A DNA stretch of 64,000 nucleotides from Candidatus Nanohaloarchaea archaeon (GTDB taxonomy: Archaea > Nanohalarchaeota > Nanosalinia > Nanosalinales > Nanosalinaceae), in contig CP046106.1 in NCBI GenBank assembly GCA_013343275.1, positions 416,001 through 480,000 on the forward strand, read 5' to 3'. This document shows, one piece after another, positions 475-63,569 of the stretch. The notes beneath the pieces were generated by a model, which saw only the letters and a list, made by a program, of their open reading frames with translations, had not been told where the DNA came from and did not search any database. Position 1 is the stretch's first letter; every line of letters begins with the position of its first letter. A program made the translations under genes and the position numbers.

Positions 475-1134
475 ATGGATTCTGTAACCAAGGAGCAGAT
501 GCAGAGAATAGATGAGGAAGTACCGGAGAAATACAGTATAACAACTTCTCGGCTTATGGAGAACGCAGGCCTTCAGGTAGCAGAACTTGTTAGAGAGAAG
601 GCCGAAGACAGAAAAATTTCCATCTACGCTGGTAAAGGCGACAACGGCGGTGACGCACTGGTATCTGCCCGAAGACTGCATAACTGGGGCTTTAAAGTGG
701 AAGTTGTACTAGCGACCACGGAACTCGATGGGATCAGAGAAGAGGAACTGGAAATACTGGAGAACCTTGACATAGAGATAACGGCGAAAAGCTCCGACAG
801 GAACTATCCTGTAGCACTGGAAGGATTAATAGGCTACAATTTGAACGGAAATCCAAGGCCTCCGTTCGACAGCATGATTCAGGAAATCAACAGCAACTAC
901 GAGACGGTATTCAGTATCGACATTCCTACAGGCCTAGACGCAGAGACCGGGAAAAGTTTCGCCCCAGCTGTAAGGCCTGATCACACAGTTACACTGGCCG
1001 CAGCTTTCGACACCATGTCAGAGCAAAATTCAGGAGAGATCTGGGTTGCCGACATCGGAATACCTCCCGAGGCCTACAGAGAGTTTGACAAGGAAATAGT
1101 TTTCAAAGAGAAGTCGTTGATCAGGTTTAATTAG
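475..1134 (+). CDS. nnrE: NAD(P)H-hydrate epimerase (stand-alone YjeF N-terminal domain)
   Basis: LMENAG, GKGDNGGDA, SIDIPTG, ADIGIP motifs. Confidence 0.88.
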   Translation: MDSVTKEQMQRIDEEVPEKYSITTSRLMENAGLQVAELVREKAEDRKISIYAGKGDNGGDALVSARRLHNWGFKVEVVLATTELDGIREEELEILENLDIEITAKSSDRNYPVALEGLIGYNLNGNPRPPFDSMIQEINSNYETVFSIDIPTGLDAETGKSFAPAVRPDHTVTLAAAFDTMSEQNSGEIWVADIGIPPEAYREFDKEIVFKEKSLIRFN

Positions 1135-1242
1135 ATGAAAATTTCAATCCATGCATAGCATGGTTTCTTGCGTGTGAAACACGCGTAACCGGTTTGCGGC
1201 CGAATCACAGAGTGATTCTTTGAGCAAGTTATGAGAATAACT

Positions 1243-1259
1243 TGCGGCATCCGGGACTT
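1243..1259 (-). repeat. 17-bp direct repeat of the tRNA-Gly 3' end (att-like)
   Basis: TGCGGCATCCGGGACTT at 1243-1259 is identical to 1310-1326. Confidence 0.85.
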
Positions 1260-1309
1260 TCGAAAAAACAAGTTTTTCTTCTAAATCTCCGGAATCAGCA
1301 GCAAAGTGA

Positions 1310-1380
1310 TGCGGCATCCGGGACTTGAACCCGGGTCTCCACGTTGGCAACGTGACGTCGTACCACTGGACCAATGCCGC
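1310..1380 (-). tRNA. tRNA-Gly(GCC), CCA not encoded
   Basis: Reverse complement GCGGCATTGGTCCAGTGGTACGACGTCACGTTGCCAACGTGGAGACCCGGGTTCAAGTCCCGGATGCCGCA folds as a cloverleaf, anticodon GCC. Confidence 0.95.
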
Positions 1381-1508
1381 ATATCATAGATGTGCTGTGT
1401 ATGGGAATTTGTGGGCTGGAAGTTTTAAGTGTATTAGCCGGCCGAAATTTCTGGAATTTTTCTACCTTGACCTAGGTATTTTGAACCTTGAGGGCCAATT
1501 CATGAAAC

Positions 1509-2432
1509 ATGGTAGAGGACAAAATTTACGATGTTATAGTGGTTGGTGGAGCCTCAGCAGCTCAGTCGGCAGCAATCTATGCTAAAAGAGCTGGCAGAAG
1601 CGTTCTCGTCATTGCAGACGAGTACGGAGGGCAGATAAACAATACTGATGTAGTGGAGAACTATCTAGGTTTTAAACATATTTCAGGGCCTGAGCTCGCG
1701 GATAAATATCTTGAACATATGCGAGATTACGATATAGATGAGGAAACAGGTTATAGAGTTACTGATATTCGGAGGCCTGACGAAGTTTTCGAGGTTGAAC
1801 GTGAGGACGGCGAAGAGTACAGAGGCAGATCTGTAGTTATTGCCACTGGCGGTCACCGCAGGAAACTCGGTGTTCCCGGCGAAGAGGAGTTCGCCAACAA
1901 AGGGGTAGGCTACTGTGCTGTCTGTGACGGACCTCTCTACCAGGGAGAAGAAGTAGCGGTTATCGGAGGAGGTTACGCTGGTACAGAGGCCGCAGATTAT
2001 CTTTCCGACATTGCAGAAAAAGTTTACGTTCTCAGCCGTTCAGGAGTGCTGAAGGGCGAGCAGATTACAATCGACAAGGTAGAGCAGGAGGACAATGTAG
2101 AGATTATCCGCGAGGCAGAGGCAGCCAAGTTCTACGGAGAAAACCTTCTGGAAGGCCTGAAGTACGAACAGGACAGCGAAATCAAGGACCTTGAGGTTAC
2201 CGGAGCTTTCATTGAGATTGGTACCGTACCGAACTCGGATATTACCGATCTCGTGGAGAAAGACGATTCCGGGCGAATCAAAGTTGATGAGGAGATGGAG
2301 ACCGGTGTTGAGGGCCTTTACGCAGCGGGGGACGTTAACGATGTAGGTGTGCAGCAGTTGCAGGTTTCCGCTGGCCAAGGGTGTCAGGCAGGTCTGAACG
2401 CCGCAGACTATGTTAAGCAGATGAAGGAGTAG
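1509..2432 (+). CDS. trxB: Thioredoxin reductase
   Basis: FAD-binding N-terminus, CAVCDG active site, GGGYAG NADPH motif, YAAGDV. Confidence 0.93.
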   Translation: MVEDKIYDVIVVGGASAAQSAAIYAKRAGRSVLVIADEYGGQINNTDVVENYLGFKHISGPELADKYLEHMRDYDIDEETGYRVTDIRRPDEVFEVEREDGEEYRGRSVVIATGGHRRKLGVPGEEEFANKGVGYCAVCDGPLYQGEEVAVIGGGYAGTEAADYLSDIAEKVYVLSRSGVLKGEQITIDKVEQEDNVEIIREAEAAKFYGENLLEGLKYEQDSEIKDLEVTGAFIEIGTVPNSDITDLVEKDDSGRIKVDEEMETGVEGLYAAGDVNDVGVQQLQVSAGQGCQAGLNAADYVKQMKE

Positions 2433-2468
2433 ATTCAAGTTATAATTTTAACCAGGTAAGAATTTGGT

Positions 2469-2720
2469 ATGCCACAGGAAACAGCAATGACAAAATGCGT
2501 GTTCTGCGGGAACAGCGCGACCACGAAGAATTCTGCAGGACAGCCTGTATGCAAGAATCACAAGGAGAAAGATCCTCGAGATGTGGCCTGTCCGGAATGC
2601 GGTATGCCTATGAAGATCAAGGAAGGCCGTTACGGGTACTTTTGGGGCTGTGAAGGCTACCCTCAGTGTCAGAAGACCTACCAGATAGAGGCCCTTGTAG
2701 ATGATGAGGAAGAGGAGTAA
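2469..2720 (+). CDS. Small double zinc-binding protein with topoisomerase-type C4 zinc ribbon
   Basis: CVFC..CKNH, then CPECGMPM..GRYGYFWGCEGYPQC. Confidence 0.8.
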   Translation: MPQETAMTKCVFCGNSATTKNSAGQPVCKNHKEKDPRDVACPECGMPMKIKEGRYGYFWGCEGYPQCQKTYQIEALVDDEEEE

Positions 2721-2723
2721 AAA

Positions 2724-3164
2724 TTATTCTATAGTGAGATCGTTAGGCTCGTAAGTTCCTATCCTGATGTTCTGGTACTTCTCATCAAGCCTGTTTGCGA
2801 TCTCAATATCAAGATCTCTTTGAGGTTCATCTCTAGGCCCTTCTCTGTTCTCAACCATGATCCTCTGTACATGATCCAGAGGAAGTTCATCCCTCATAAT
2901 TACATCGTAACACGAATCTGAATCCTCAACTACCTTGACATTCGCAGGATCAATCTCTAGGTAACCTCCTCCCCACGCATAGGCCTTAGCGCACTCTCTG
3001 CTGTCAGTCGCCCAGATTGCCTGATCTTTATCATAGACTTCTCTTTCAACATCCATCTCGGTGAAGACATCTTCCTCATCAATCGGATGGCCCTGTATAA
3101 AACCAGTCTCAGCAATATCCAGCAGACCTTCCTCGCCTCTTCCATGATAAAGTTTGTGAGTCAT
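2724..3164 (-). CDS. Hypothetical acidic protein, possible ADP-ribosyltransferase-like fold
   Basis: KLYHG..I..G, IWATDS..A.AYA, LEID pattern. Confidence 0.55.
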   Translation of the reverse strand: MTHKLYHGRGEEGLLDIAETGFIQGHPIDEEDVFTEMDVEREVYDKDQAIWATDSRECAKAYAWGGGYLEIDPANVKVVEDSDSCYDVIMRDELPLDHVQRIMVENREGPRDEPQRDLDIEIANRLDEKYQNIRIGTYEPNDLTIE

Positions 3165-3250
3165 GAAAAACCTTCACGTGTAGAAATCTTTTATTGTTTT
3201 TCAGTGACAAAAACACAATTAGATATGTTTATCTCCCAAAAATAACTTAA

Positions 3251-3383
3251 GAGCCTGTAGCTCAGCGGGACAGAGCATTCGGTTCCTAGGAACTTCTGTA
3301 AGTTCCATCAACAGGAACCATGCAATGCATGGATCTAGTTCGGAAATACCGAGAGGTCGAGGGTTCAAATCCCTCCAGGCCTG
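3251..3383 (+). tRNA. tRNA-Arg(CCT) with 59-nt intron (3289-3347) at canonical 37/38 position
   Basis: D arm GCTC/GAGC, anticodon stem TTCGG/CCGAG, T arm GAGGG-TTCAAAT-CCCTC; BHB with central helix TTCC/GGAA and bulges TAG/ATA. Confidence 0.9.
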
Positions 3384-3405
3384 TAAAATAAAGTGATATA
3401 GGAAA

Positions 3406-3993
3406 ATGATGGGAGTTACACATGCATTGATGGGAGGCCTTCTTGGGGCCTCCAGCGCAGTTTTCACGCTAGAGTACTTTCTGGCAGCAGTAATTGCAGG
3501 TTATCTTGGAGGCCTCTTCCCTGATCTCGATCTGGCGTTCAATCACCGCCAGACACTGCACTTCCCGGTAGGATACACAGTACTATCTGTTGCAGCAGTT
3601 GCCACAGCAGTTTTCACAGCGGAGAAAGGTCTTATTATTCTCTCGTACTTTATCCTGTCAGCTGCAGTGCATTCCTGGATTGATATACTGGGTGGAGGGC
3701 TGGAGGAAAAGCCGTGGGAAGGTACTACGGATAAAGGAGTTTACTCTCACAGCTTGGATCGGTGGTTCCCTCCTCTCCAGGTAATCCGGTATGATGGGGC
3801 GCCTGAGGACTTTCTACTTACTCTAGGCCTAGGTACTGCACTATTCCCTCTACTGGCTGGTTACCCTGTAGCTCAGAAAATTGTTGTAGCCAGCATCGCA
3901 GTCGGAGGCCTGTATTCACTGGTCAGGAAGAAGCTCCTCGATGTCAGGGACTTTCTTCTCAAGGCGTTCAACAGCCTGATCGACGAGTCCTGA
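3406..3993 (+). CDS. Membrane-bound metal-dependent hydrolase (YdjM/DUF457-like)
   Basis: TH, PDLD..HR.TLH, HSWID motifs with TM segments. Confidence 0.85.
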   Translation: MMGVTHALMGGLLGASSAVFTLEYFLAAVIAGYLGGLFPDLDLAFNHRQTLHFPVGYTVLSVAAVATAVFTAEKGLIILSYFILSAAVHSWIDILGGGLEEKPWEGTTDKGVYSHSLDRWFPPLQVIRYDGAPEDFLLTLGLGTALFPLLAGYPVAQKIVVASIAVGGLYSLVRKKLLDVRDFLLKAFNSLIDES

Positions 3994-4578
3994 GAGATAC
4001 GCCTCTCCAAAGAAAGCAACTAGCAGTGCTCCTGCCGAGTCAAAAAGCAGGTCCTTCATTGTATCTTCCAGGCCGTACTGTGTCAGAATCTTCGTACCTG
4101 TAACCTGTCCAAGTAGGCCAGTCATGAACTCGATAACCTCCCATACAACACCGAAGGCCATGACAAAGGCCACGAGGAACACCGGCATAAGTTTTGAAGG
4201 GAAGTGAATCTCCTCTGAGTGCTGGTCGAGCGCTCTCACAGCGATGTATCCTGAGGCCGCTACAATCGATGAGGAAAGTGCATGCGTCATATGATCCCAC
4301 CACCAGATATTCCTGTAGGGGCCTAATGCTCCGAAACTGTGAAGGAATACTGCAAGAGTAATCCACAGCGCCAGCGCTGGGTCAAGAACAATATCGAGGT
4401 CTCTCTCCAGGTAAGACGGTGCGAAAGTTACAGCCAGCGAAATCAATGCATTGATGGTTATACTGAAAACTCCTTCAACAATCCCTATACCTGCAATTGC
4501 CACCAGCAAGGCCTGTAGTACTCTGGTTAACTGCGACTGCTTCCTGGAGTTAAGACCTAATCTCCTGAGTATCCTCAC
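3916..4578 (-). CDS. Membrane protein (DUF2238/VanZ-like) with putative metal ligands
   Basis: Multiple TM segments; WWDHMTH, WEVIE, DTMKD motifs. Confidence 0.7.
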   Translation of the reverse strand: MRILRRLGLNSRKQSQLTRVLQALLVAIAGIGIVEGVFSITINALISLAVTFAPSYLERDLDIVLDPALALWITLAVFLHSFGALGPYRNIWWWDHMTHALSSSIVAASGYIAVRALDQHSEEIHFPSKLMPVFLVAFVMAFGVVWEVIEFMTGLLGQVTGTKILTQYGLEDTMKDLLFDSAGALLVAFFGEAYLSGLVDQAVERLEKKVPDIEELLPDQ

Positions 4579-5155
4579 TGTATTTCACCTCTCTTATATC
4601 ATCCGCTCTCCTCTTGAAGTAGTAGTGGAAAAGCAGGCCGAAAACCGCTCCAATCGCTGTGGCTGCCGTGAATTCCCACATAAGGTGCTCTTCCGAGGTT
4701 ATCAGGGTAGTTCCAAGATAGATGTCCGAAAGCCAGCGAACCAAAGCCCAGAAACCCGCCATCGCCACAGTTACTATAGCGGTCAGAAAGACTGCGAAGA
4801 ATGAGCTAGTCCTGAGAGACGTGAATTCATCCATCTCTACAACTACAAGCAACGAGGTAACGGCGACCGAAGCATAGCTGACAGCCATACCGCTGAAAAG
4901 CGAAAAACCAAACGACTTATGGACGAAAGGAAGTGATACCAGGAAAAGCAGCTCCCATGGCGCAGCAACAGTATCTCTGTATACCAACGATGGAACTACC
5001 GACATAAAGAATACGAAAGCCGATAATATCAGCCATGCAAAGGCCTCTGACAGGAAAGCGTCAACAGCAGTTCCGAGAAATACGAGAGACAGGAGCATTG
5101 AAAACAGGAAGTTCCTCTTTTTCCTCTCGTAGACAAAATCAGAGCCGAGGCCCAT
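4550..5155 (-). CDS. Membrane protein, divergent paralog of the downstream gene
   Basis: About 6 TM segments, same layout as 3916-4578, overlapping and co-oriented. Confidence 0.7.
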   Translation of the reverse strand: MGLGSDFVYERKKRNFLFSMLLSLVFLGTAVDAFLSEAFAWLILSAFVFFMSVVPSLVYRDTVAAPWELLFLVSLPFVHKSFGFSLFSGMAVSYASVAVTSLLVVVEMDEFTSLRTSSFFAVFLTAIVTVAMAGFWALVRWLSDIYLGTTLITSEEHLMWEFTAATAIGAVFGLLFHYYFKRRADDIREVKYSEDTQEIRS

Positions 5156-5215
5156 ACTCTTCGTTGGTCGAAGAGCTTATTTAAGAATTCTACAAGAATC
5201 AGGTTATACACGGAA

Positions 5216-5290
5216 GGGCCCGTAGCTCAGCTTGGACAGAGCGAGCGGCTTCGGACCGCTAGGTCTAGGGTTCAAATCCCTACGGGCTCG
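5216..5290 (+). tRNA. tRNA-Arg(TCG)
   Basis: GGGCCCG...AGCGG-CTTCGGA-CCGCT...TAGGG-TTCAAAT-CCCTA-CGGGCTC-G cloverleaf. Confidence 0.95.
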
Positions 5291-5371
5291 AACTCATTAC
5301 GCTGAGATTCGCACGCAATAAGCCATAAAGTATGGCTTCCAAAAGAACTTTCTCTTAGTCATCTACTATGT

Positions 5372-5509
5372 GCGGAGGTTGCCGAGTGGTCAAAGGCGCA
5401 GCGTTCAGGACACCGTCTCGTTCAACGTGACGGTTTGAGAAGGCTTCTGCCTTCGACGGGAAATGCGCTGTCCCTTAGGGGTTCGCAAGTTCGAATCTTG
5501 CCCTCCGCA
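5372..5509 (+). tRNA. tRNA-Leu(CAG) with ~55-nt intron (5410-5464)
   Basis: Acceptor GCGGAGG/CCTCCGC, anticodon stem CAGCG/CGCTG, long variable arm, T arm GCAAG-TTCGAAT-CTTGC; relaxed BHB. Confidence 0.9.
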
Positions 5510-5518
5510 AAATCCTGC

Positions 5519-5911
5519 TTATACAATTTTGTCTGAGAATTCGAAGTGGGCTATAAAGTAGCCTAGAAGAAGTGTGGCGGCTCCTAATGTCGATTGGATG
5601 AAGTTCTGATTGCTTACTCCTTGAGCTCCATATATCATTCCAACTGAGAAAAGGGCTGCTGAGAGAGCCAGATACAGCCAGTTCCTCTCATCTTCGGGCA
5701 GAACCTTATTATCTTGACGTGGGTCGATGAAGACTCCTGCTTCCACACGATGGATAACTAGATAAGAACTCCAGGCCAGCCCGGACAACATTATAGACTC
5801 CAGCAAGGCAGCCTCCTGTGCTTTAAGGAAAAGCCGGGCAAGACTCCCTGACAGAACAGCAAAGCCTGCAGATATAACCAATAACCGTCTCCAATCATAA
5901 CGTAGATTCAT
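5519..5911 (-). CDS. Hypothetical 4-TM membrane protein
   Basis: Hydrophobic segments; GY.I.H-type motif in each half. Confidence 0.65.
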   Translation of the reverse strand: MNLRYDWRRLLVISAGFAVLSGSLARLFLKAQEAALLESIMLSGLAWSSYLVIHRVEAGVFIDPRQDNKVLPEDERNWLYLALSAALFSVGMIYGAQGVSNQNFIQSTLGAATLLLGYFIAHFEFSDKIV

Positions 5912-35501: not shown

Positions 35502-35756
35502 AAAAATTTTAAAACATTTCAAGGCCCTTTCTTCTGTATGAGAGCTGCTGGCTTACTGCGGAAAGGTGGATGCTTTGTACCTCCAGCAGCTGCTATCGAA
35601 TAATCTGAACTCTTTAACTAATGAATTAACCGATTTCTACAGATTTTTGTCTAAAATTTATGCTATGAGTTTCTACCTGAATTCAACGGTTTCACGCTTT
35701 GAAAGTTTAAAATCATTTAAGAATCATTTCAGCTTATCTAACCGAGGCCTCTAAAA

Positions 35757-38384
35757 ATGGAAGGAGACTACAATCCGGAGAAAATTGAAGAGAAATGGCA
35801 GCAAAAATGGGAAGAACAAAATACTTACAGGTATAAAGGAGGGGAAGGAGAAGTATTCTCCATCGACACACCACCTCCAACAGTTTCAGGAAACCTGCAC
35901 TTCGGCCACACCTACGGCAACACGCTAACCGATTTCCAGGCCCGCTTCCAGCGCATGCAGGGCAAAGACGTTTTCTTCCCGTTCGGATACGACAACAACG
36001 GTATTGCAAGCGAGAGGCTGACAGAGAAAGAGCTTGGAATCAAGCATCAGGACTTTGAACGCAGAGAGTTCCAGAAAAAGGTTCGCGAAGTCTGTACCGA
36101 GTACGAACAGAAGTTCGAGGACATTATGAAGGAGTTTGCTTTCTCCATGGACTGGTCGAATACTTACAAGACTATCGATCCGGAAGTTCAGAAAGTTTCC
36201 CAGCTGTCCTTCATCGATCTATACGAACAGGGCCGAGAGTACCGTGAGAAAGGCCCGGCAATCTGGTGTCCGGAATGCGAGACAGCAATCAGCCAGGTCG
36301 AGACGGAGGACGCGGAGCGGCACTCACACTTCAACGATATCGAGTTCCCTCTGGCCACAGGCAACGGCTCAGTTATAATCTCTACTACAAGACCTGAGCT
36401 TCTGCCAGCGTGCGTCGCGATCTTCGTCCATCCCGAAGACGAGAGCAACGAGCACCTGGTCGGAGAAAAGGCCGAAGTCCCGCTTTTTGACTACGAAGTC
36501 CCTATAATTGAAGACGAGAGAGTCGACAGAGAGACTGGTACAGGCGTCGTCATGTGCTGTACGTTCGGAGATCAGAACGACATCGAATGGTACCAGGCCC
36601 ACGACCTCGATCTCAGAGTAGCAATCGACAGAGACGGCACAATGACTGATCTGGCGGAAGACTACAAAGGCCTTGATACGAAAGAGGCTCGTGAAGAGAT
36701 TGTAGAGGATCTAGACAGCGAAGGATATCTAATTGATCGCAGAGAGATCACTCACACAGTCCAGGTCCACGAAAGATGCGATGAAGACATCGAATTCATG
36801 GTTACAGAGCAGTGGTACGTTGAACTGCTGGATCACAAGGACGAGTACCTTGAGGCCGGCGAAGAGATGGACTGGTTCCCTGAGAAAATGTTTACACGGT
36901 ACAAGAACTGGATTGAAGGCCTTCAGTGGGACTGGTGTATCTCCCGACAGAGAGACTCCGGAATTCCGTTCCCTGTCTGGTACTGCGAGGAATGTGGAGA
37001 AGAGATCATAGCTGACAAGGAGGACTTGCCTGTCGATCCTATCCAGGATACTCCTGTAGGAGAATGCCCGGAATGTGGCCACGACGAGTTCAGGCCTGAG
37101 AAAGACGTATTCGATACATGGGCCACCTCATCGCTAACTCCGCTGATCAACGCTGGATGGCACTGGAACGCAGAGGAAGAGGAATACGAGATGGAGAGGC
37201 CTGAGCTTTACAAGTTCGATTTGCGGCCTGAAGGCCACGACATCATCAGTTTCTGGCTTTTCCATACAGTTGTCAAGTGCTACGAGCACACAGGAGAAAC
37301 ACCTTTCGAAGGCACTATGAATCACGGGCATGTTCTCGACGAGAACAGGGAGAAAATGTCGAAGTCACGAGGCAATGTTACAACACCTCAGGAGATCCTC
37401 GAGGATTATCCTGTCGACGCGGCCCGTTACTGGGCAGGCGCAGTCAAGCCAGGCGACGATCTGCCGTTGAAGGAGAAAGATCTGGTTTCAGGGGAGAAGT
37501 TGCTGAGAAAGCTGTGGAACGCATCCAAGCTAGTTGACGACTTGACACCTGCAGAGAGACTGGATCTTGAAGAAGATAAACTGGATGAAGTTGATAGATG
37601 GATCTTCGCAGAACTGGACGATACATTGGAAGAAGTTACAGAACACATGGAGGCCTACGAGTTCTCCAAGGCCCGTGATAAGCTGCGGTACTTCTTCTGG
37701 CACACATTCTGCGACGACTACCTGGAGATCACAAAGCAGAGGCTCTCAGACGAAGATAAGAGCTCTGCACAGTATGCACTGCAGGAAGTTCACCGCTCAA
37801 TCGTCAAGATGTTCGCACCGTTCATTCCTCACATCACCGAGGAGATCTGGAACCAGATGCATGACTCGGGATCCGGAACGGTTTCCGATCAAGAAGACCT
37901 GTCTTCGCAAAGTATTCACCGCAGCAGCTGGCCTGAAGACTCGGGAATTGAGGCTGACCTGGAGGCCGGAGAGACAGCGATGGAAGTTATCTCCGCACTC
38001 CGGAAGTACAAGTCCAGCAACCAGATGGCGTTGAACGAGGAACTCGAACACGTCACAGTCTACGGCAACATCTCAGGGATGGAAGACCCTATCAAGGAGG
38101 CTATGCATATCGAAGAGCTCGAGTCAAAGGATGGAGAACCGGAGACCGAGAAGAAGATCATCGATATCAGCCTTGATTACTCTAACGCCGGCCCTAAGTA
38201 CGGCGACAAAGTCTCCGAGATAGAAGAGGCCCTGGAGAACAACGAATGGATGATCGACGACGGCCGATTAGAGGTTGCCGATGAGCACCTGAAGCCGGAG
38301 ATGTTCGAAGTCCACGAGGAACGGACTTACACAGGAGAAGGGGAGATGCTGGAAACAGAGAATGCTCTCGTTGTAATCAGGTAA
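35757..38384 (+). CDS. valS: Valine--tRNA ligase
   Basis: DTPPPTVSG.LHFGH, WDWCISRQR, DTWATSS, KMSKS. Confidence 0.97.
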   Translation: MEGDYNPEKIEEKWQQKWEEQNTYRYKGGEGEVFSIDTPPPTVSGNLHFGHTYGNTLTDFQARFQRMQGKDVFFPFGYDNNGIASERLTEKELGIKHQDFERREFQKKVREVCTEYEQKFEDIMKEFAFSMDWSNTYKTIDPEVQKVSQLSFIDLYEQGREYREKGPAIWCPECETAISQVETEDAERHSHFNDIEFPLATGNGSVIISTTRPELLPACVAIFVHPEDESNEHLVGEKAEVPLFDYEVPIIEDERVDRETGTGVVMCCTFGDQNDIEWYQAHDLDLRVAIDRDGTMTDLAEDYKGLDTKEAREEIVEDLDSEGYLIDRREITHTVQVHERCDEDIEFMVTEQWYVELLDHKDEYLEAGEEMDWFPEKMFTRYKNWIEGLQWDWCISRQRDSGIPFPVWYCEECGEEIIADKEDLPVDPIQDTPVGECPECGHDEFRPEKDVFDTWATSSLTPLINAGWHWNAEEEEYEMERPELYKFDLRPEGHDIISFWLFHTVVKCYEHTGETPFEGTMNHGHVLDENREKMSKSRGNVTTPQEILEDYPVDAARYWAGAVKPGDDLPLKEKDLVSGEKLLRKLWNASKLVDDLTPAERLDLEEDKLDEVDRWIFAELDDTLEEVTEHMEAYEFSKARDKLRYFFWHTFCDDYLEITKQRLSDEDKSSAQYALQEVHRSIVKMFAPFIPHITEEIWNQMHDSGSGTVSDQEDLSSQSIHRSSWPEDSGIEADLEAGETAMEVISALRKYKSSNQMALNEELEHVTVYGNISGMEDPIKEAMHIEELESKDGEPETEKKIIDISLDYSNAGPKYGDKVSEIEEALENNEWMIDDGRLEVADEHLKPEMFEVHEERTYTGEGEMLETENALVVIR

Positions 38385-38465
38385 TCTTCCTCTAACCTCT
38401 CTTCTTTCTTACCTCTTCTTTGCTTTCTGAAGTAGTTAAAAGAATTCAGGCCTCTTATCTTCTAC

Positions 38466-39707
38466 ATGAGCCAGAATCAAAACCACGATGAAATGAGCAA
38501 GTACCAGTTGAAGAAGCTGGTCAACAAGCTGGAGGACATCAGAGGCCGGAACACTGAGCTTGTATCGCTGTACATTCCTGCAGGATACGACATGTCGAAG
38601 ATCTCCGAGTTTATTACATCCGAATCTTCAGAGGCCGAAAACATCAAGTCGAAGCACACCAGGAAGAACGTGAAGGCCGCCCTTGACAAGATTTCCAGGA
38701 GGGTGAAGGAGGAGCCTGTTACCCCGGAAAACGGTGTTGCTTTCTTCGCAGGAAATGTCTCCGAACGCGAGGGACGGCCTGATATCCAGCTGTGGGAGGT
38801 TATCCCTCCTCAACCGATCGAATCACGCAGATACCGCTGTGACAAGGAGTTTGTTCTACAGCCTCTGAAAGATATGATCGTCGACGACCGAGTTTACGGA
38901 CTGATCGTTGCCGACAAGAACGAGGCTGCGATAGGATACCTTCAGGGCTCCTCAGTGAAGACCGCATATACACTATCATCTAATGTGCCTGGAAAGACCA
39001 GGGCCGGAGGACAGTCGGCACAGAGGTTCGCCCGTTTGAGAAAGGAGATGCTGAAATCCTTCCTCCAGGAGATAGCGGAGAAATCGAAGAACGCATTCAT
39101 GAGTAAGGCCCGCGAGGATAAGCTGCTGGGCATCATTATCGGAGGCCCTGGATTTGTGAAGGACAAGCTTGTCAGCGATGACTACCTTCATCAGGAACTT
39201 CAGGACAAGGTTATTGCGAACAAGTCGCTGGGCCACTCCGGGGAAGGCGCACTGAAGGAGCTTGTTAACAAGGCGGAGGACGATATCGAGGACTCTGCTG
39301 TTGTGCGTGAAAAGCAGTTAGTGAACGATTTCCTTGAGAACCTGAAGGAGGAGAACGGGAAATCCGAGTACGGCCTGGAACCTGTAATAAAGGCCCTGAA
39401 AATGGGTGCTGTAGATACCATTCTCATCTCGGAGGACTACGAATCTTTCAAGGCCGACTACGAATGTCCCAACGGCCACGAAGATACAGTCTTCGAAGAG
39501 GAGGCTGAGATAGAGGATTCAAAGGAGTGTCCTGAGTGCAATGAGGAGATGAAACTCGAGGAGATGCAGGACATAGTCGATTACATGGCAGGTAAGGCCG
39601 AGGAGATGAGTTCGGATCTTGAGATTATCTCCACTGATCACGAGGAAGGTCAGAGATTGATGAATATGGGAGGCGTTGCCGCCATCCTGCGGTACAGAAT
39701 CCGTTAA
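38466..39707 (+). CDS. prf1: Peptide chain release factor aRF1
   Basis: TELVSLYIP, NIKS, YRCD, GGQS, GGVAAILRY. Confidence 0.97.
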   Translation: MSQNQNHDEMSKYQLKKLVNKLEDIRGRNTELVSLYIPAGYDMSKISEFITSESSEAENIKSKHTRKNVKAALDKISRRVKEEPVTPENGVAFFAGNVSEREGRPDIQLWEVIPPQPIESRRYRCDKEFVLQPLKDMIVDDRVYGLIVADKNEAAIGYLQGSSVKTAYTLSSNVPGKTRAGGQSAQRFARLRKEMLKSFLQEIAEKSKNAFMSKAREDKLLGIIIGGPGFVKDKLVSDDYLHQELQDKVIANKSLGHSGEGALKELVNKAEDDIEDSAVVREKQLVNDFLENLKEENGKSEYGLEPVIKALKMGAVDTILISEDYESFKADYECPNGHEDTVFEEEAEIEDSKECPECNEEMKLEEMQDIVDYMAGKAEEMSSDLEIISTDHEEGQRLMNMGGVAAILRYRIR

Positions 39708-56754: not shown

Positions 56755-57939
56755 ATGTGGGTAGAAAAATACAGGCCTGAAAGTCTTTCGGAATACCGTG
56801 GAGCATCCAGTCAGAAGGAGGAGCTCCAGGAATGGATCAAAGACTGGGAGAGGGGCGATAAACCTGTTCTCCTGCATGGTCAGGCCGGTACCGGGAAGAC
56901 CTCTCTCGTCGAGGCCCTTGCAAATGATATCGGATACGAGCTTGTTGAGACTAATGCTTCCGACGTAAGAACTAAATCAAAGCTGAAGGAGGAGTTAAAG
57001 GAGGCAACCAGACAGGCCTCGTTTTTCGGCGGTAAGAAGCTGATTCTGGTCGATGAAGTAGATGGCATGGGTACCGGTGATAGAGGTGGTACTGCCGAGC
57101 TGAAGAGAATAGTAGAGGAATCGCGTTTCCCCGTAGTTATGACTGCTAACGATGCCTATGACAACAGTATCCGCAGTCTGCGGAACATGGCCAAGACTGT
57201 AAAACTGGACTCCGTCCATACTAACTCTATCGCAGCACATCTGAAAGAGATACTTGAAGAGGAAGGTATAGAGTATGAAGACGGTGTTCCGAAAAGGATC
57301 GCTCGTCAGGCCGGCGGTCAGATGCGTTCAGCGATCAATGATCTGGAAGCAGTGGCTATGGGCAAGAAAAAGATTACTGCAGATGATCTGGATGTTATTG
57401 CCAGTCGTGATAACCGTCAGGAGATCTTCGATTCTTTGAAGATTATTTTCAAGACTATGAACCCGGATAATGCCCGTCAGGCTACGGAGAACCTGGATGA
57501 GGACGCTGAAACGTTTATGCAGTGGATCCGGGAGAATATTCCACGTGAGTACAAAAGGCCTGCGGATATTGCAGAGGCCTACGATAATATTTCGAAGGCT
57601 GATGTGTTCAATGGCCGTATTATGCGAGATCAGAACTGGAAGCTGCTGAAGTATGTGTACAGTTTCTCGACTGTTGGTGTCGCATTGAGTAAGGAGGAGA
57701 AGTACAGTGGATGGACGAAGTACCAGTATCCTTCGAAGATCAAGAAAATGGGTCAGTCACGGGCCTCACGTAACAAGCTGGAGAGTATTTCATCCAAGCT
57801 AGGGGAGAAACTACATATCTCAGGTAACGACGCTGTCCGTGAGATGCCTTTTATCTCTCAGATGATTGATGCAAGGCCTGAAGTTATTGAAGAACTGGAG
57901 CTGGAAGAAGATGAAGTTGAGTTTATAGAGGAGTTCTAG
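56755..57939 (+). CDS. rfcL: Replication factor C large subunit
   Basis: WVEKYRP, GTGKT, NASDVR, DEVDG, W.RENIP. Confidence 0.95.
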   Translation: MWVEKYRPESLSEYRGASSQKEELQEWIKDWERGDKPVLLHGQAGTGKTSLVEALANDIGYELVETNASDVRTKSKLKEELKEATRQASFFGGKKLILVDEVDGMGTGDRGGTAELKRIVEESRFPVVMTANDAYDNSIRSLRNMAKTVKLDSVHTNSIAAHLKEILEEEGIEYEDGVPKRIARQAGGQMRSAINDLEAVAMGKKKITADDLDVIASRDNRQEIFDSLKIIFKTMNPDNARQATENLDEDAETFMQWIRENIPREYKRPADIAEAYDNISKADVFNGRIMRDQNWKLLKYVYSFSTVGVALSKEEKYSGWTKYQYPSKIKKMGQSRASRNKLESISSKLGEKLHISGNDAVREMPFISQMIDARPEVIEELELEEDEVEFIEEF

Positions 57940-58268: not shown

Positions 58269-60786
58269 TTGACCACCTCAGATCAAGCCGGTAAGGCATA
58301 AACACTTCCTCACTAACACTTCCCACGATCTCGGTTGAGAACCGCGGCTGGTTCTGCTGCTCGAAAGAAAGCTGATCTCCTCTCAACCAGTACAGCGTAG
58401 AGGCCAGCACCTTTACATCTGACTGCTCGTAACTCTGCTCGTACGCCGCTCTTGCCAGTCTCTGACCTTCAAAACCTTCAAAATTGGTTCTGTAATTGAT
58501 CAGTTCTATCTCGTCCGATCCTGCAAAGACAAACTCCGCACATAGCCTGCCGTCGTCACAACCTGTTTCATTGTTGAAGGCAACCCTGTAACGCCGGTTA
58601 GCTATAATAACTCTTTCTCCCTGCAGGAACGGGCCTTCACCCTCATCGCCGTAATTACCGTTGTCATTGAAGTCGACATTCAGGGCCCGTATATCAGTTC
58701 CATCGCTTGAACCTAGATAAGTGTTAAGCACGCTATATGTTGCACCATTCGGGAATGTGAAAGTATCCATCGTATACTCTGACCCTGAAGGCGCACCGGG
58801 CGGCGGCGATGTAGGTGACATACTCCAGGAGGAGGCATTCCAGTCATCCGAGTTGTACCTGTGGTTGATGGCATAGAAAAAGTTGTTATCCGAGGTCACA
58901 GTCTCAGCGCCTCCAGACTTCACCCAACCTCCAGGAACCAGAGAGACATCACGCTGATCTCCGTTAAGCCCCTGGAAGTATGAGTCAGCCTCATCAGAAA
59001 CCGTAGTGGTGAAACCTCCAACCAGGTTAGCGAGATCCACAAGGCCTGCCGTTACCTGAATCGAGCCAGACGAGGCCGTACCGCTACCGCTTCCACCACT
59101 GATCTGTATATTGAAGTTAGTATTACCTGATCCACTTCTCACGAATATACGGCCTCCTGCACCACCACCGGCAGAGGAACTTGCATCCCCTCCATTCGCC
59201 GATAAAGTGCCAGATCCGGAGACCTGATGGGACTCTACTCTAATGCTGCCTCCTGAGCCGCCACCGCTGTCCGCAGTTCCATCCTCACCGTCCATAACTA
59301 TAGAGCCTGAGAGCGCGAATTCTTCGCTCTGTATCCATACAGAACCTCCACCAGATCCGCCAGCAGCATTGTCATCTGTATCGTATCCTCCAGCAGATCC
59401 AGGGCGTTTGGCCTCGAAGGAAGAACCGTATTCGCTGCCTCCTGCAGCGGCTCCAGAACCTCCAGGCCCACCGTATCCTCCGCCACCGGCTGCAGTTGCA
59501 GATCCACCTGCTCCTGGGCCGTAAGCAGTAGAGCCACTGCTTCCATATCCTGCCCCCGTTCCTACGAGAGATCCGTCAATATTGACCTCTCCTTCTACCA
59601 CAATCTTTGGTGCATACTTGCTGTAAAGTACGTTTTCACATGTGCCACTAGGAGAGTTCTTGCATACTGAAAGATTGTTCTCGACATAGGCCGTGGCCCC
59701 TGATTCAATTGTCAGGCTGTTCAGGAAATGCCTGCCCGGGCCGAATGTGCAACCGGAGTTGGATGAGTCTATGATCACATCTCCGGTATGGGGACAGGTG
59801 GTGGATTTGCTTCCCTGGCTCATACCTACCCATTCCAGGCCAAGGTCCTGAATGAAGTCATTACTGTTGGTAGTGGATTTATCCAAATTCATCAAGAGAA
59901 GAACTGAGCCTGTTTTCATGAAGTCCTCCACCTTCTGCCGGTTGGCCTGAATACTGGAAAGAGCTGCCTCATCTCTGAAAACCAGTATCTCGTACTTTGA
60001 CAGGTTTGCACGTCCAAGATCAAATGTGCTTACAGAGGTCCTGGTGTTTATGCCATTGACCTCTCTGGAAAGCATTTTCTTCATTTTAACAGGTTGATCA
60101 GCTTTGAAGAGCGATACACTGCTCGAATCTATCTCCTTGATATCATAGTAAGTATCAGGGTTGTCATCTGTCATATTACCCCAGAGGAAAAAGTTATCGA
60201 TATAGTAAGGGCCTTCACTGTTAGTGAACTGGCACTGAGTCTTGTTATCTACCCAGACGGTATCATAATCAGTCTCGGAATTGAAACCTCCAGAAACTCT
60301 TGGATCGGTATCCCCCACATAGAGCACCACGTTGTGCCGTGATTGACGGGAGGCAGCAGGATCTGTCTGCCGGAGCGGTACTCCTGGCTGCACTTCCTCT
60401 TCTAACTCTGTCAGATCACCGCTGCAGTCTGTGATTCCCTGGAGGCCCTGATTCGGGTACTGTCTCTTCGGCAGAACATTGTATCCTACAGAGGTCTCAA
60501 GTATAGGCAGATTTGAAACCGTCCCCGATACATGCATATTACGGCCTGATATCGTTGTTATAGCGGTTTTAAGAGACCCTATTTCGGCGTTCTTCATGAA
60601 GTGAGTTATGTGGCCGGTTTTCTTGAGCGTATAGCTGATATCCTGGGCTGCGACCTCCTGCTGGAAATTGCTCCAGTTCTGATTGTCAGGGATATCAAAG
60701 CTTCCGGCTGCAAATGCAAGAAGTATGAATATAGATACCATTAGTTCTATTGCGTATCCTGCGCCTTTCCTGTTCACCAGGCCCAC
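58261..60786 (-). CDS. Large pilin-like adhesin with glycine-rich insert
   Basis: RKG|AGYAIE signal; GGGGYGG, GGSGGGS, GGGAGG repeats. Confidence 0.75.
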   Translation of the reverse strand: MGLVNRKGAGYAIELMVSIFILLAFAAGSFDIPDNQNWSNFQQEVAAQDISYTLKKTGHITHFMKNAEIGSLKTAITTISGRNMHVSGTVSNLPILETSVGYNVLPKRQYPNQGLQGITDCSGDLTELEEEVQPGVPLRQTDPAASRQSRHNVVLYVGDTDPRVSGGFNSETDYDTVWVDNKTQCQFTNSEGPYYIDNFFLWGNMTDDNPDTYYDIKEIDSSSVSLFKADQPVKMKKMLSREVNGINTRTSVSTFDLGRANLSKYEILVFRDEAALSSIQANRQKVEDFMKTGSVLLLMNLDKSTTNSNDFIQDLGLEWVGMSQGSKSTTCPHTGDVIIDSSNSGCTFGPGRHFLNSLTIESGATAYVENNLSVCKNSPSGTCENVLYSKYAPKIVVEGEVNIDGSLVGTGAGYGSSGSTAYGPGAGGSATAAGGGGYGGPGGSGAAAGGSEYGSSFEAKRPGSAGGYDTDDNAAGGSGGGSVWIQSEEFALSGSIVMDGEDGTADSGGGSGGSIRVESHQVSGSGTLSANGGDASSSAGGGAGGRIFVRSGSGNTNFNIQISGGSGSGTASSGSIQVTAGLVDLANLVGGFTTTVSDEADSYFQGLNGDQRDVSLVPGGWVKSGGAETVTSDNNFFYAINHRYNSDDWNASSWSMSPTSPPPGAPSGSEYTMDTFTFPNGATYSVLNTYLGSSDGTDIRALNVDFNDNGNYGDEGEGPFLQGERVIIANRRYRVAFNNETGCDDGRLCAEFVFAGSDEIELINYRTNFEGFEGQRLARAAYEQSYEQSDVKVLASTLYWLRGDQLSFEQQNQPRFSTEIVGSVSEEVFMPYRLDLRWSNE

Positions 60787-61640
60787 ACCTCCATTTTCAC
60801 AGGGTGGACAGTGCTACCTACTTCCATCGCTGCGTACCGATTCAGCTTGATAACTCGAGAATCCTGATCGAAAGCCGCACCAAAGGTAGTCATGGTTCTC
60901 TTGAGTACAAACATTGCTCCAGGCTCCTCTTTCCTGTTCTGTACTGTATGAAGCTGGAAAGGGTAGCCTGCAAGGGTTAAAGTGCCTCCTACCGCGTGAC
61001 GCGTGTACTTATACTGTGTTCCAAAGTCACAGGGATAGTATGCCGAGGCGTTGTACTCTGTCTTGTACACAGTATCGTAGACACCGTTATGCGATACAGT
61101 AAGGAAGCAGTACCGTGTCGATACAAAGTCCTCAACAGTGTAATGGACTTCGTTATCTGCACTCCAGTAGTTATCTATATCGCTGTCCGGTTCATCGATA
61201 AAGCTCGGTGAGTTAGAGCGGGTAAAACTTTTCGAGGTAGTAATTACGGGCATCCAGGTAAAACGGAACCTGTAATCGTGGCTTAGATGTAGGGCCTCTG
61301 TAAATATAGAATAGTTTAGCTTGTCGGATCCGACAGTTGAAAGCCTGTCTATCTTGTCTTTCTGCAGGAGTTTGTAGTCAGAGGCCAGACCTACATCTTC
61401 AGTGCTGCGGAGAGTAGAGAGGTTCTTCTCCCAGTTAGTGGTTCCCTGACCATGACCGGAGTAGCCTGGCTGCGTCATTAGGCGTGTTGAGAGGCTGTAG
61501 GCCTCCAGGTTAAGCGATGCCTGATGTACATCGTTCCTGAACTCCGGTACCTTTCCAGCGCCGATCGATGCTATTCCAAGCACCGCTATGAGGAATAGAA
61601 CCATTGAACCGAAGTACTCGATGCTGAACTGCGCTTTCAT
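60774..61640 (-). CDS. Type IV pilin-like protein
   Basis: MKA|QFSIEY signal; start overlaps the upstream stop. Confidence 0.75.
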   Translation of the reverse strand: MKAQFSIEYFGSMVLFLIAVLGIASIGAGKVPEFRNDVHQASLNLEAYSLSTRLMTQPGYSGHGQGTTNWEKNLSTLRSTEDVGLASDYKLLQKDKIDRLSTVGSDKLNYSIFTEALHLSHDYRFRFTWMPVITTSKSFTRSNSPSFIDEPDSDIDNYWSADNEVHYTVEDFVSTRYCFLTVSHNGVYDTVYKTEYNASAYYPCDFGTQYKYTRHAVGGTLTLAGYPFQLHTVQNRKEEPGAMFVLKRTMTTFGAAFDQDSRVIKLNRYAAMEVGSTVHPVKMEVWAW

Positions 61641-62692
61641 TATGGCAACCCCGCAGGAGCAACTATCATCATGAATGCGACGAAGGCCAGTGGCAGCATG
61701 ATTAAAGCGTGTTTTACACCTGCGCTCGGGCTTCCCTCTGATACCTGACCCGCAACTGCTGCGGTACATGCTCCCTGTATCATCAGCATTGTGAAGAGCA
61801 GCGACTTGTAGTAAGCCATTCTGCCGTAACTGTACTTGTTAGCGTACTGGCTGGTCAAATCATTAGTTACGTTAGCCGGGATAAATCCAAAGATCTTTGC
61901 TGTAGAGCAGAAAGGTCTTGCCGATGCGATAGCTCCACTACAGTAGTTGGTCGGGCCGCTGCCTCCGCCTCCGCCACTACCCTGACTACTCAACACCTCT
62001 TTTACTCCAGAGAGCGCTCCCGGATCAGGGCTTCCAAGGCCGAGGAGCTGCGCCAGCATAGTGTATATTCCTATCGTTATGCCTATGAACAGGAAGTAGA
62101 TAACGTACATGATGACAAGTTGCTGTCTCAGTTTTGCGTCTTTCTCCTGTATAACCTCCTTGAGTTTGGTTGCGTCCTCTCCTACAGATTCGATGGTCTG
62201 CGTGATTCCACCCCCGCTCTCAAAGCTCTGAATTATGATAGATGTCGACTCCTGTATGACTGCAGAGTCGCTCATACGTTTGTTGAAGCGCTCCATAACC
62301 TCTGGGAACGGGATTCCCCATGTAAGCTCGTAGTGGATCTTCTCGATCTCGCTGTTAAGCCTTCCGTAATCCGTTTCCTTGGCTGATTCAAAGGCTCTCA
62401 TAATTGTCATGCCTCCTCTCTTCGACTCAGCCAAGTCCTTCAGGAAGGAAGGGAATTGATCCTCCATCTGTCGAACCGCCCTATTACGGAGGAAAGATAA
62501 AATACCATAAGGTACAACGCCTATAAGCAGGCCCAGTATGAATGCGATTCCTCCTATTCTGTCAGCGCCCTGAAGGTAGAGGAAGAGGCCTATAAGCAGT
62601 ATAAATCCACCTACAGCTAGAGCTCCATAAATTATCTTCTTTGTAAGCGAGTAACCTGGTTCAAAGTCTTCCTCCTGGAAAAAATCTAGCAT
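61640..62692 (-). CDS. Type II/IV secretion F-family (TadC/PilC-like) membrane platform protein
   Basis: FPSFLKDLAES..GG, DYG.L..E, WGIPF, SGG. Confidence 0.88.
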   Translation of the reverse strand: MLDFFQEEDFEPGYSLTKKIIYGALAVGGFILLIGLFLYLQGADRIGGIAFILGLLIGVVPYGILSFLRNRAVRQMEDQFPSFLKDLAESKRGGMTIMRAFESAKETDYGRLNSEIEKIHYELTWGIPFPEVMERFNKRMSDSAVIQESTSIIIQSFESGGGITQTIESVGEDATKLKEVIQEKDAKLRQQLVIMYVIYFLFIGITIGIYTMLAQLLGLGSPDPGALSGVKEVLSSQGSGGGGGSGPTNYCSGAIASARPFCSTAKIFGFIPANVTNDLTSQYANKYSYGRMAYYKSLLFTMLMIQGACTAAVAGQVSEGSPSAGVKHALIMLPLAFVAFMMIVAPAGLP

Positions 62693-62696
62693 TTTA

Positions 62697-63569
62697 TCAC
62701 CTTATTCCTCCAGGAGCTATCCCTCTTACAAAGATTATGAACATACCAGAAATTAAAGGAAGGCCTACGAAGATCGCTATTACCTGAACTGTTACAACCA
62801 GCTGGGGCGACATTGATGCAAATGAGCTCATAACTGCGCTCATAGATGTAAAAATTATAGAACCAACAATGACGATTGTAATATACATCTCCACCAGCAG
62901 AGATAGCTGATCAGCAAACTCCTCAACTCTCCTCTCGTAATCATTCATTAAAGTCTCTGCCCTCTGTCTTAAAAACTCTCTAAGAGACCCTCCCGTAGTT
63001 ATAGAGTGGTTAATACCCCAGACAAGCTCTTCAAAATCATCACTAGGAGTCCTCTCGGCTGCACGCTTCAAGGCCTCACTTATATCCATACCTAGAGTGT
63101 TGACATCCCTACTGATCTTGGCAGCCTCCTTGGAAACCTCTCCATACTCCTCCACCTCTGAGAGATTCTGGAAGATTTCAGGTAGGGATGTACCGGTGCC
63201 TGCCAGAGTCGACAGATACATTGTGGCAAAGGGTAGAGTATCCCGAATCTTGGAGGCCCTGTTGCTTACCAGTATTCGCGGGTAGATGTAGAATCCTACA
63301 AATGTAAATATTGAGAAAAGTATTCCAAATATTATCCCTATCATAAGGCCTGCGATACCCATACTCAGAGCCATTAAGCCTCCGATAAACAGGAAGCTGG
63401 CGCCGAATACTGAGGCTGTTGAAACAAACATGGTGCTCAGGTATTCCGGCAATGAAATTTCCAGACCTGCCTTGGTAAGCTTGGGTCTCAAGCCTTCAAA
63501 GTACTCAAGATACTGCAGTGCGTATGCTCCGGCTAACTGGTAACAGAAATCGCTATACTTCTTGAGCAT
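62697..63569 (-). CDS. Type II/IV secretion F-family (TadB/FlaJ-like) membrane protein
   Basis: LPFATMYL, YGEVSKE, G.DI..AL, TPS, TGG.L..FL. Confidence 0.88.
   Translation of the reverse strand: MLKKYSDFCYQLAGAYALQYLEYFEGLRPKLTKAGLEISLPEYLSTMFVSTASVFGASFLFIGGLMALSMGIAGLMIGIIFGILFSIFTFVGFYIYPRILVSNRASKIRDTLPFATMYLSTLAGTGTSLPEIFQNLSEVEEYGEVSKEAAKISRDVNTLGMDISEALKRAAERTPSDDFEELVWGINHSITTGGSLREFLRQRAETLMNDYERRVEEFADQLSLLVEMYITIVIVGSIIFTSMSAVMSSFASMSPQLVVTVQVIAIFVGLPLISGMFIIFVRGIAPGGIR

Follow-up and report, generated by a model that had tools for sequence, protein, structure and literature searches.

AGGCCT is a hyper-abundant palindrome, resembling the highly iterated palindromes of cyanobacteria, in a nanohaloarchaeal genome and several relatives

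The window analysed here is a stretch of 64,000 nucleotides (64 kb) of a nanohaloarchaeal genome, covering positions 416001-480000 of a single contig of 915,886 bp with an estimated completeness of 96.5 % (handle G000). The palindromic hexamer AGGCCT was found in it 139 times, or 2.2 sites per kb, while 18.2 ± 4.0 copies are expected, and none of 100 dinucleotide-preserving shuffles reached this count (the largest was 34). The gene calls are purely based on open reading frames (ORFs), and the set for the whole genome contains 948 ORFs of at least 90 amino acids (aa), covering 89 % of the genome. We counted as a synonymous opportunity any protein position permitting AGGCCT; the classes are Arg-Pro, Glu/Lys/Gln-Ala-(Cys/Phe/Leu/Ser/Trp/Tyr), and X-Gly-Leu with X having a codon ending in A. 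The features of the window are the following.

567..63351, no strand: 139 AGGCCT sites scattered through the window, exact matches
567..3911, no strand: the 13 AGGCCT sites listed in an earlier note on this DNA (567, 856, 930, 973, 1070, 1773, 2153, 2981, 3377, 3435, 3510, 3825, 3906), exact matches
35745..35750, no strand: AGGCCT in intergenic DNA, 12 nt before the ORF of valyl-tRNA synthetase (valS, 35757-38384)
38448..38453, no strand: AGGCCT in intergenic DNA, 18 nt before the ORF of aRF1
38466..39707, plus strand: aRF1 gene, with 0 AGGCCT despite 2 synonymous opportunities
57556..57580, no strand: a close pair of AGGCCT sites, 19 bp apart, which is a rare spacing

Every one of the 13 coordinates between 567 and 3906 given in the earlier note proved to be correct. 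The site is also frequent to the end of the window, as the note had said, with the last copy at 63346, but the end it quoted, 63198, is not a site (the nearest are 63071 and 63346). AGGCCT was further described as lying just upstream of gene starts. The sites before valS and aRF1 (prf1) are indeed present, but genome-wide the 40 nt before start codons are site-poor, with 1.2-1.5 sites per kb against about 2 per kb elsewhere. Apart from this dip, genes and spacers have an even density in the metagene profile, and a slight rise just after stop codons appears because the A of the stop codon supplies the 5′ flank. With the flat profile, the dip at starts and the explained bump at stops, a promoter or terminator role was rejected. 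The aRF1 gene belongs to the 15 genes of at least 1200 nt without AGGCCT in G000 (8.6 expected).

Genome-wide we counted 1803 AGGCCT in G000, one per 508 bp, and the word ranks first of the 4096 hexamers. The ratio of observed to expected counts (O/E) is 9.2, 7.1 and 3.1 under Markov models of order 0, 1 and 2. A genome-wide comparison with Markov and codon-shuffled nulls had been proposed earlier; AGGCCT is the commonest hexamer and its excess persists, so the hyper-abundance in G000 is confirmed. The relatives used for comparison were G008 (complete, 1,118,574 bp), G012 (complete, 956,550 bp) and G016, compared over 720,000 of its 948,351 bp (76 %). Genomes called rich have AGGCCT counts 4.3-17x that of the reversed control word, and in the remaining genomes this ratio is at most 1.63. 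G008 is rich, and the non-rich baseline consists of one full genome (G012) and one partial (G016).

The coding DNA of G000 contains 1593 AGGCCT. When codons were shuffled within each gene, with protein and codon usage kept (synonymous null, 40 shuffles), 354 ± 16 were left (maximum 394), a difference of 4.4x, and the shuffled deficit is about 4.5-fold in each of the three frames. Shuffling of codon order left 242 ± 16. All three reading frames are used, as the earlier note had claimed (AGG-CCT 243, xAG-GCC-Txx 517 and xxA-GGC-CTx 833). The top-ranked words relative to the synonymous null are AGGCCT (4.4x) among the 6-mers, AGGCC (3.0x) and GGCCT (2.8x) among the 5-mers and GGCC (1.95x) among the 4-mers. 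A dicodon-Markov null left an excess of 1.13x and 1.52x in its two non-circular frames, and 1.6-1.7x in G008. The enrichment, which the earlier note had considered refuted if it vanished after control for amino-acid, codon and dicodon usage, thus persists at 4.4x under the synonymous and 1.1-1.5x under the dicodon null. The density in non-coding DNA is 1.98 per kb (O/E 11.9) as compared to 1.95 per kb in coding DNA, and a stricter non-coding mask gave 1.92 per kb (O/E 12.5). As the excess survives the synonymous and dicodon nulls and non-coding DNA is equally dense, the signal belongs to the DNA and not to the proteins.

The repeated unit is short. Across G000, sequence information beyond the hexamer is at most 0.08 bit at each of 20 flanking positions, and together with a near-exponential spacing (coefficient of variation 1.14) this rules out a longer repeat or mobile element as the source of the sites. 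Spacings of up to 60 bp are scarce (125 versus 201 expected). The two flanks of GGCC in G000 are statistically independent, with 1803 AGGCCT observed and 1805.4 calculated from the marginals. GGCC without a correct flank occurs at 0.32-1.01x, with one correct flank at 2.4-3.2x and with two at 9.2x, and Gly is strongly favoured to be coded by GGC in half-site contexts (0.57-0.61). The enriched unit in G000 is the pentamer AGGCC, read on either strand, and therefore a maximal-order Markov model reproduces the hexamer count; the excess is relocated, not removed. In 23 kb of the congener G001 we found 56 AGGCCT (0.32 of GGCC), with 59.2 expected under flank independence. G008 carries 4489 AGGCCT, one per 249 bp (19.4x), which exceeds the 4118.7 expected under flank independence and makes up 65 % of all GGCC. 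Its half-sites are near background (0.9-2.0x) and its other GGCC contexts are depleted (0.14-0.71x). The share of AGGCCT in GGCC is 30 % in G000 and 32 % in G001, as compared to 59-72 % in G003, G008, L014, L020 and L419. The full palindromic hexamer looks to be the unit in G008 and other relatives, and relaxed AGGCC half-sites in genus g1, to which G000 belongs. A replication-oriented half-site resembling Chi or the FtsK-orienting polar sequences (KOPS) was rejected, as the skew of AGGCCV versus BGGCCT tracks gene strand only.

AGGCCT is carried by 0.738 of the opportunities in G008, 0.498 in G000 and 0.085 in G012, with near-identical values across the three frames. In the context A_ _CT, Gly is coded by GGC in 0.74 (G000), 0.91 (G008) and 0.20 (G012) of cases, and elsewhere in 0.28, 0.23 and 0.17. 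The opportunities themselves number 11.7, 15.7 and 8.9 per 1000 codons in G000, G008 and G012. The O/E of the dipeptide Gly-Leu is 1.21, 1.45 and 1.02 in the same order and that of Arg-Pro is 1.09, 1.49 and 0.84, while both reversed dipeptides are unchanged. Since the opportunities are inflated, the force has changed protein sequences. Relative to G012, the coding odds ratios are 10.7 for G000 and 30.3 for G008; the non-coding densities predicted from them are 2.6 and 7.3 per kb, and those observed are 1.9 and 5.1 per kb. One per-site multiplier of the odds, 8-11 in G000 and 21-30 in G008, therefore accounts for both coding and non-coding DNA with a deviation of about 30 % at most.

Neighbouring AGGCCT sites interfere within about 30-45 bp. 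The realised fraction in G008 rises with the distance to the next opportunity from 0.55 at 6-15 bp through 0.61, 0.67 and 0.70 to 0.77-0.80 at 90 bp or more, and at 6-15 bp the probability of a second site is 0.43 when the first is realised and 0.70 when it is not. Site counts in 500-bp segments of G008 are under-dispersed (variance/mean 0.78). The same distance gradient is found in G000 (0.29 to 0.52), but there the contrast conditional on the neighbour is weak.

Sites are also shared between rich genomes. In the 515 reciprocal-best-hit pairs of G000 and G008, 503 of the 987 G000 sites in gap-free aligned codons are AGGCCT in G008 as well; the same count against G012 gave 31 of 850. At 797 orthologous opportunities with identical amino-acid context, both genomes have the site in 392 cases, G008 only in 238, G000 only in 41 and neither in 126. 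Shared occupancy is above the 309.8 ± 12.8 expected given context (odds ratio 5.1, with G008 near saturation). General synonymous codon identity between the two genomes is likewise above expectation (0.368 versus 0.265). The spectrum of site density along G008, not controlled for opportunity density, peaks at about 74.5 kb (power 48 versus a permutation 95th percentile of 24; none of 500 permutations as high), and no periodicity peak was found in G000, where 321 of 500 permutations reached the observed maximum.

Comparison with related genomes, also suggested earlier, revealed a lineage-specific trait. By its valyl-tRNA synthetase G000 belongs to the Nanohaloarchaea, the best named match being Candidatus Nanosalina sp. 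VS9-1 with 73 % identity. Thirteen of the 70 genomes examined from the phylum are rich, all within one family (genus g1 3/3, g26 5/5, g7 3/3, g2 2/6), and the 20 genomes from other families include no rich one. Counts across rich genomes are not independent because these genomes are related. All three species of g1 have 2.0-2.5 AGGCCT per kb. In a tree of valyl-tRNA synthetase (ValRS), 9 of 9 rich rows fall into one clade of 12 rows (support 95/99), and the three non-rich rows inside it imply at least 2-3 changes of state. Within this one family the trait was gained or lost repeatedly, and it is labile, varying even within genus g2. L003, a locus of a nanohaloarchaeal metagenome-assembled genome (MAG) which is non-rich but sits inside the rich ValRS clade, has 0 AGGCCT and a GGCC O/E of 0.11 in 22.6 kb. 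In 67 haloarchaeal loci (1.27 Mb), representing potential hosts, AGGCCT has an O/E of 0.48, one per about 6 kb. Among the genome contigs listed (80 loci), only the nanohaloarchaeal MAG L419 has the dispersed AGGCCT signature, which cannot show its absence elsewhere. AGGCCT is depleted in G018 (73), G046 (55) and G054 (97), which have 344-491 copies of the control word.

Genes of narrow distribution are not exempt: in G000, saturation is 0.42 among ORFs that lack a homologue in three relatives, little below the 0.52 of core genes. A few tracts outside the window are site-poor. In G000:C1:781216-791057 (9.8 kb) three large genes realise 0 of 9 opportunities, G000:C1:388172-400623 (12.4 kb) has many small ORFs, 1 AGGCCT and 21 GGCC versus 82 expected, and G000:C1:134769-140455 (5.7 kb) is almost free of AGGCCT, with a GC content of 0.377. 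These three tracts are probably recently acquired DNA. In G008 the sole long tract without AGGCCT spans 5.5 kb and corresponds to a compact operon, L169:9770-16544 (G008:C1:889770-896544), coding for a PALP-rhodanese enzyme, a pyridoxal-phosphate decarboxylase, CobW and CbiA/ParA-like nucleoside triphosphatases, a ParB_N-like protein and NikR. Rather than a virus, it resembles acquired cargo related to metals.

Taken together, the force acts per site, is blind to frame and compartment, overrides some amino-acid constraints, is locally saturable and evolutionarily labile. We tentatively favour, at somewhat less than even confidence, a reading in which AGGCCT is a genome word resembling the highly iterated palindromes (HIPs) of cyanobacteria and the preferred recognition sequence of a putative sequence-specific, probably dimeric DNA-binding factor. 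A DNA-level force would write AGGCCT into all resident DNA of this nanohaloarchaeal lineage, and the sites would be kept by weak selection or by a drive dependent on binding of the factor. An existing site within about 30-45 bp would partly satisfy the force, with one site per neighbourhood giving the benefit or drive. The palindromic 6-bp unit, the separable half-sites and the saturation range of about 30-45 bp together suggest that the factor is dimeric. In genus g1 the AGGCC half-sites would contribute independently per strand, and in G008 and other relatives the full hexamer would be the unit. By analogy with the work on the cyanobacterial palindrome HIP1 (Xu 2018; Rodriguez-Cruz 2026; Kamoku and Nielsen 2024), such a factor may serve nucleoid structure, recombination or DNA exchange and uptake, here without methylation. 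A DNA-binding signal was the alternative offered in the earlier note to methylation-coupled repair, and it is the one we prefer. It fits better than repair of the very-short-patch (VSP) type, as neither a donor-word signature nor a methylase was found.

Several observations weigh against the DNA-binding factor. The independent flanks in G000 fit half-site recognition and not a strictly cooperative dimer. Interference is less clean there than in G008, as occupancy at 6-15 bp is low (0.30) even next to an unoccupied neighbour. A repair or conversion drive would give a uniform per-site multiplier just as well. The positional correlation between G000 and G008 may reflect maintenance, but it may also reflect shared ancestry or local constraints. 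Absent methylase genes do not prove absent DNA modification. Lastly, no binding factor emerged from a phyletic screen, in which seven of the candidate families were tested across 31 genomes or locally and none tracks the trait.

In that screen the 948 ORFs of G000 were searched by tblastn (at least 50 bits) against G008, G012 and the fetched 76 % of G016, and 44 of them match G008 but neither G012 nor the covered part of G016. Scans with Pfam, PADLOC and NCBIfam found no restriction or modification component among the G008 orthologues of the candidates. An ExoIII-like nuclease was rejected, being present in the non-rich G007, G015 and G026 and only a remnant in the rich G003; this remnant (G003:C1:596886-596999) is 37 aa long with an in-frame stop, and the gene is intact in G000, G001 and G008. 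A conserved three-gene operon was not found in G003 and is present in the non-rich G007, and a basic 136-aa protein, also not found in G003, is present in G005 and G015. A small S-adenosylmethionine-dependent methylase (PADLOC mad2-like fold) has orthologues in the non-rich G018, G005, G007 and others, and a metallophosphoesterase-like protein is present in the non-rich G005, G007 and G017. An 829-aa ORF of G008 with a weak N6_Mtase match has a homologue in the non-rich G012 and none in G000. A type-IV-pilin-like locus occurs in 13 of 18 other genomes of the family (f1) and was not found in G003; in G008 (L178:2317-9043) it codes for large acidic secreted proteins and small proteins with N-termini like class-III signal peptides. 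The list of 44 also includes two winged helix-turn-helix proteins and about 30 further candidates. The uptake proteins ComEC (PF03772) and DprA (PF02481) were found in 0 of 31 genomes, which is weak evidence as archaeal uptake systems are poorly known.

The strongest competitor of the DNA-binding factor, which we consider possible but clearly not probable, is a methylation-free molecular drive, in which a nicking or mismatch enzyme resolves near-cognate heteroduplexes towards AGGCCT whether or not the site has a function. It is consistent with the single multiplier for coding and non-coding DNA, the equal effect on all frames and the lability within a genus, and a per-site benefit would be unnecessary in a small-genome symbiont. 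Site-poor tracts (782-790 kb in G000 and L169:9770-16544 in G008) look like acquired DNA not yet converted. However, no donor word is depleted. The 15 one-mismatch variants of AGGCC stand at 0.68-0.94 of the synonymous null except for the flank variants, and transition neighbours are the least depleted (AGGTC 0.91, AGACC 0.90, AGGCT 0.94 in G000). With G012 as the baseline, G000 and G008, both rich, have core variants at 0.68-1.35; flank variants are at 2.8-4.0x in G000, and GGGCCT/AGGCCC at 2.8x in G008. Moreover, G000 has no Vsr, the ExoIII-like and metallophosphoesterase-like nucleases fail the phyletic test, and interference between sites less than 30 bp apart is not obvious from patch repair.

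Methylation-coupled creation and maintenance, the cause put forward in the earlier note and corresponding to Elhai's HIP model, appears unlikely. It supposes that an AGGCCT or GGCC methylase marks the sites and that methyl-dependent mismatch repair restores or creates them. Cyanobacterial HIPs are each paired with a cognate methylase and their one-letter deviations concentrate at outer positions (Elhai 2015), and flank variants are in excess here too. Cross-cell methylation involving a nanohaloarchaeon and its host was suggested by Reva (2024), and a mobile methylase gene would be in keeping with the lability of the trait within a genus. We searched G000 for such genes and found no match to PF00145 (C5), PF02086 (D12 class) or PF03852 (Vsr), while control genomes were positive for PF00145 and PF03852. 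The sole matches to PF01555 and PF02384 (N6_N4_Mtase and N6_Mtase) lie in a THUMP/UPF0020 protein, which also matches TIGR01177 and archaeal Trm14 tRNA methylases. The survey covered 11 of the 13 rich genomes (all but G040 and G042) and found no methylase class common to them: a C5 methylase only in G043, a clear N4/N6-beta methylase only in G001, HsdM-like N6 methylases only in G001 and G003, and the D12 class in 0 of 5. C5 methylases do occur where AGGCCT is depleted, in G018 (73 versus 491 of the control word) and G016 (196 versus 613). The predicted depletion of AGGTCT and AGACCT is also absent, as these words number 342 and 356 in G000 with O/E of 1.57 and 1.59, equal to the non-rich baseline. 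The sole published nanohaloarchaeal methylome motif is GDGcHC, and the parts of that paper available to us do not mention AGGCCT (Reva 2024). The methylase would have to be of an unrecognised family, lie on an unassembled extrachromosomal element or be supplied by the host cell.

Comparably doubtful is the idea that AGGCCT is a mark of "self" in an obligate ectosymbiont living off host nucleic acids. A methylation-independent protein that binds AGGCCT, with a footprint of some 30-45 bp, would allow a nuclease or a machinery for recombination or import to distinguish resident DNA, where a site occurs every 250-500 bp, from host DNA, where it occurs only about every 6 kb. If true, this would be the first archaeal, methylation-free counterpart of self-recognition by Chi or uptake sequences.

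Slightly less credible still is that the signal in genus g1 is a decaying or weakened relic of an ancestral force that is now weak or nil. G000 does have the lowest enrichment of the rich group, the low share of AGGCCT in GGCC is common to it and G001, its saturation is 0.50 as compared to 0.74 in G008, and half-site contexts are strongly favoured. However, random decay should raise core and flank variants alike, and only flank variants are up (core 0.74-1.24). All three species of the genus keep their site density, and the saturation of orphan genes, close to that of core genes, points to continuing action. Finally, we dismiss as next to impossible that the excess is a mere by-product of amino-acid, codon or dicodon usage: the maximal-order Markov model does give the hexamer count exactly (1805.4 versus 1803), the excess sitting in the pentamers, but 4.4-6.6x remains over synonymous and codon-order shuffles, the dicodon null leaves the excess given above, non-coding DNA is enriched 12x, and G012, with similar codon usage, fills just 8.5 % of its opportunities.

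The HIPs of cyanobacteria have puzzled researchers for three decades, and to our knowledge every current model of them leans on cognate methylases. The octamer HIP1 (GCGATCGC) is 15-300x over-represented in cyanobacteria (Xu 2018). It is recognised by the methylases DmtA and DmtC (Rodriguez-Cruz 2026) and, according to recent proposals, may act as a signal for uptake or in the manner of Chi (Rodriguez-Cruz 2026; Kamoku and Nielsen 2024). The comparison with HIP1 drawn in the earlier note is valid as far as the phenomenon goes, since AGGCCT too is a short palindrome that is hyper-abundant and independent of frame. Like HIP1, AGGCCT is GC-rich, abundant genome-wide in genes and spacers, altered mainly at its outer positions and lost or replaced in some lineages. 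HIP1 sites also coincide between related genomes above expectation, a pattern that the 392 sites common to G000 and G008 may match. Unlike HIP1, it is a hexamer, archaeal, found in symbiont genomes of 0.9-1.1 Mb and without a cognate or orphan methylase found; its 9.2x in G000 is below the range of HIP1, while G008 reaches 19.4x. AGGCCT shows four of seven HIP features (abundance, independence of frame and compartment, no longer repeat, outer-position deviations), and the methylase pairing fails. For the other two, conservation of sites between relatives and a chromosomal periodicity of 10-90 kb, the values of G000 and G008 are those given above. Another parallel is GGCGCC, the most over-represented 6-mer of Calothrix PCC 7103 and an alternate HIP (Elhai 2015, section 2.3). 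Both are hexameric, GC-rich, lineage-restricted palindromes and the top 6-mer of their genome, but alternate HIPs come with a specific methylase and none was found for AGGCCT. We found no description of AGGCCT enrichment in archaea in the literature searched, which included Reva 2024 and a survey of archaeal restriction-modification systems, both without their supplements. AGGCCT is thus a new HIP-like case that is archaeal, hexameric and has no methylase found.

The uptake signal sequences (USS) of Pasteurellaceae and the DNA uptake sequences (DUS) of Neisseriaceae resemble AGGCCT as dense genome words that occur in all frames, distort peptides, are lacking in foreign islands, form lineage "dialects", are spaced more evenly than chance and are explicable by molecular drive; they are 9-12 nt long and not palindromic. 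AGGCCT differs from them as a palindromic hexamer in genomes where ComEC and DprA were not found and the type-IV-pilin-like locus does not track the trait. In Dcm/Vsr very-short-patch repair of Escherichia coli (CCWGG), a repair bias raises the frequency of the methylase target word, with a modest effect and a depleted T-containing neighbour. In contrast, G000 has no C5 methylase or Vsr, the transition neighbours are not depleted and the effect is 9-19x. Palindrome avoidance under restriction-modification concerns the same GGCC/AGGCCT word family, which the relatives L003 and G018 avoid, but has the opposite sign, as AGGCCT is enriched. Unlike Chi, the AGGCCT palindrome cannot be oriented, and its half-site skew follows gene strand only.

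The case extends a HIP-type phenomenon to another domain of life and to 1-Mb genomes without a recognisable DNA methylase. The force involved can fill as many as three quarters of the synonymous opportunities and shift the dipeptide content. As the genomes are small and the trait is present or absent within a genus (2/6 in g2), its cause should be directly findable by comparative genomics and methylome sequencing, and could decide among selection, drive and methylation models for HIPs generally. For practical use, AGGCCT also separates native from recently acquired DNA sharply in these genomes, and it offers a strong signal for the binning of metagenomes from hypersaline sites.

Two side observations concern other words and other hosts. 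CTTAAG (47 versus 188, 0.25x) and GAATTC (222 versus 455, 0.49x) are among the most depleted coding hexamers of G000 relative to the synonymous null, and GGGCCC is depleted even given its GGCC context (49 versus 108.6). In a genome where no DNA methylase was found, this looks like restriction-site avoidance. Among the viral-contig matches listed (80 loci with clustered sites), most are tandem repeats and no recognisable nanohaloarchaeal virus was seen. The IMG/VR contigs L322, L307 and L343 have dispersed AGGCCT at 2.3-3.3 per kb and realise 44-53 % of opportunities. Their proteomes are non-acidic and without similarity to nanohaloarchaeal proteins, and the two queried against a phage collection (L322 and L307) had no match. 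A similar word may be hyper-abundant in some unrelated, non-halophilic host.

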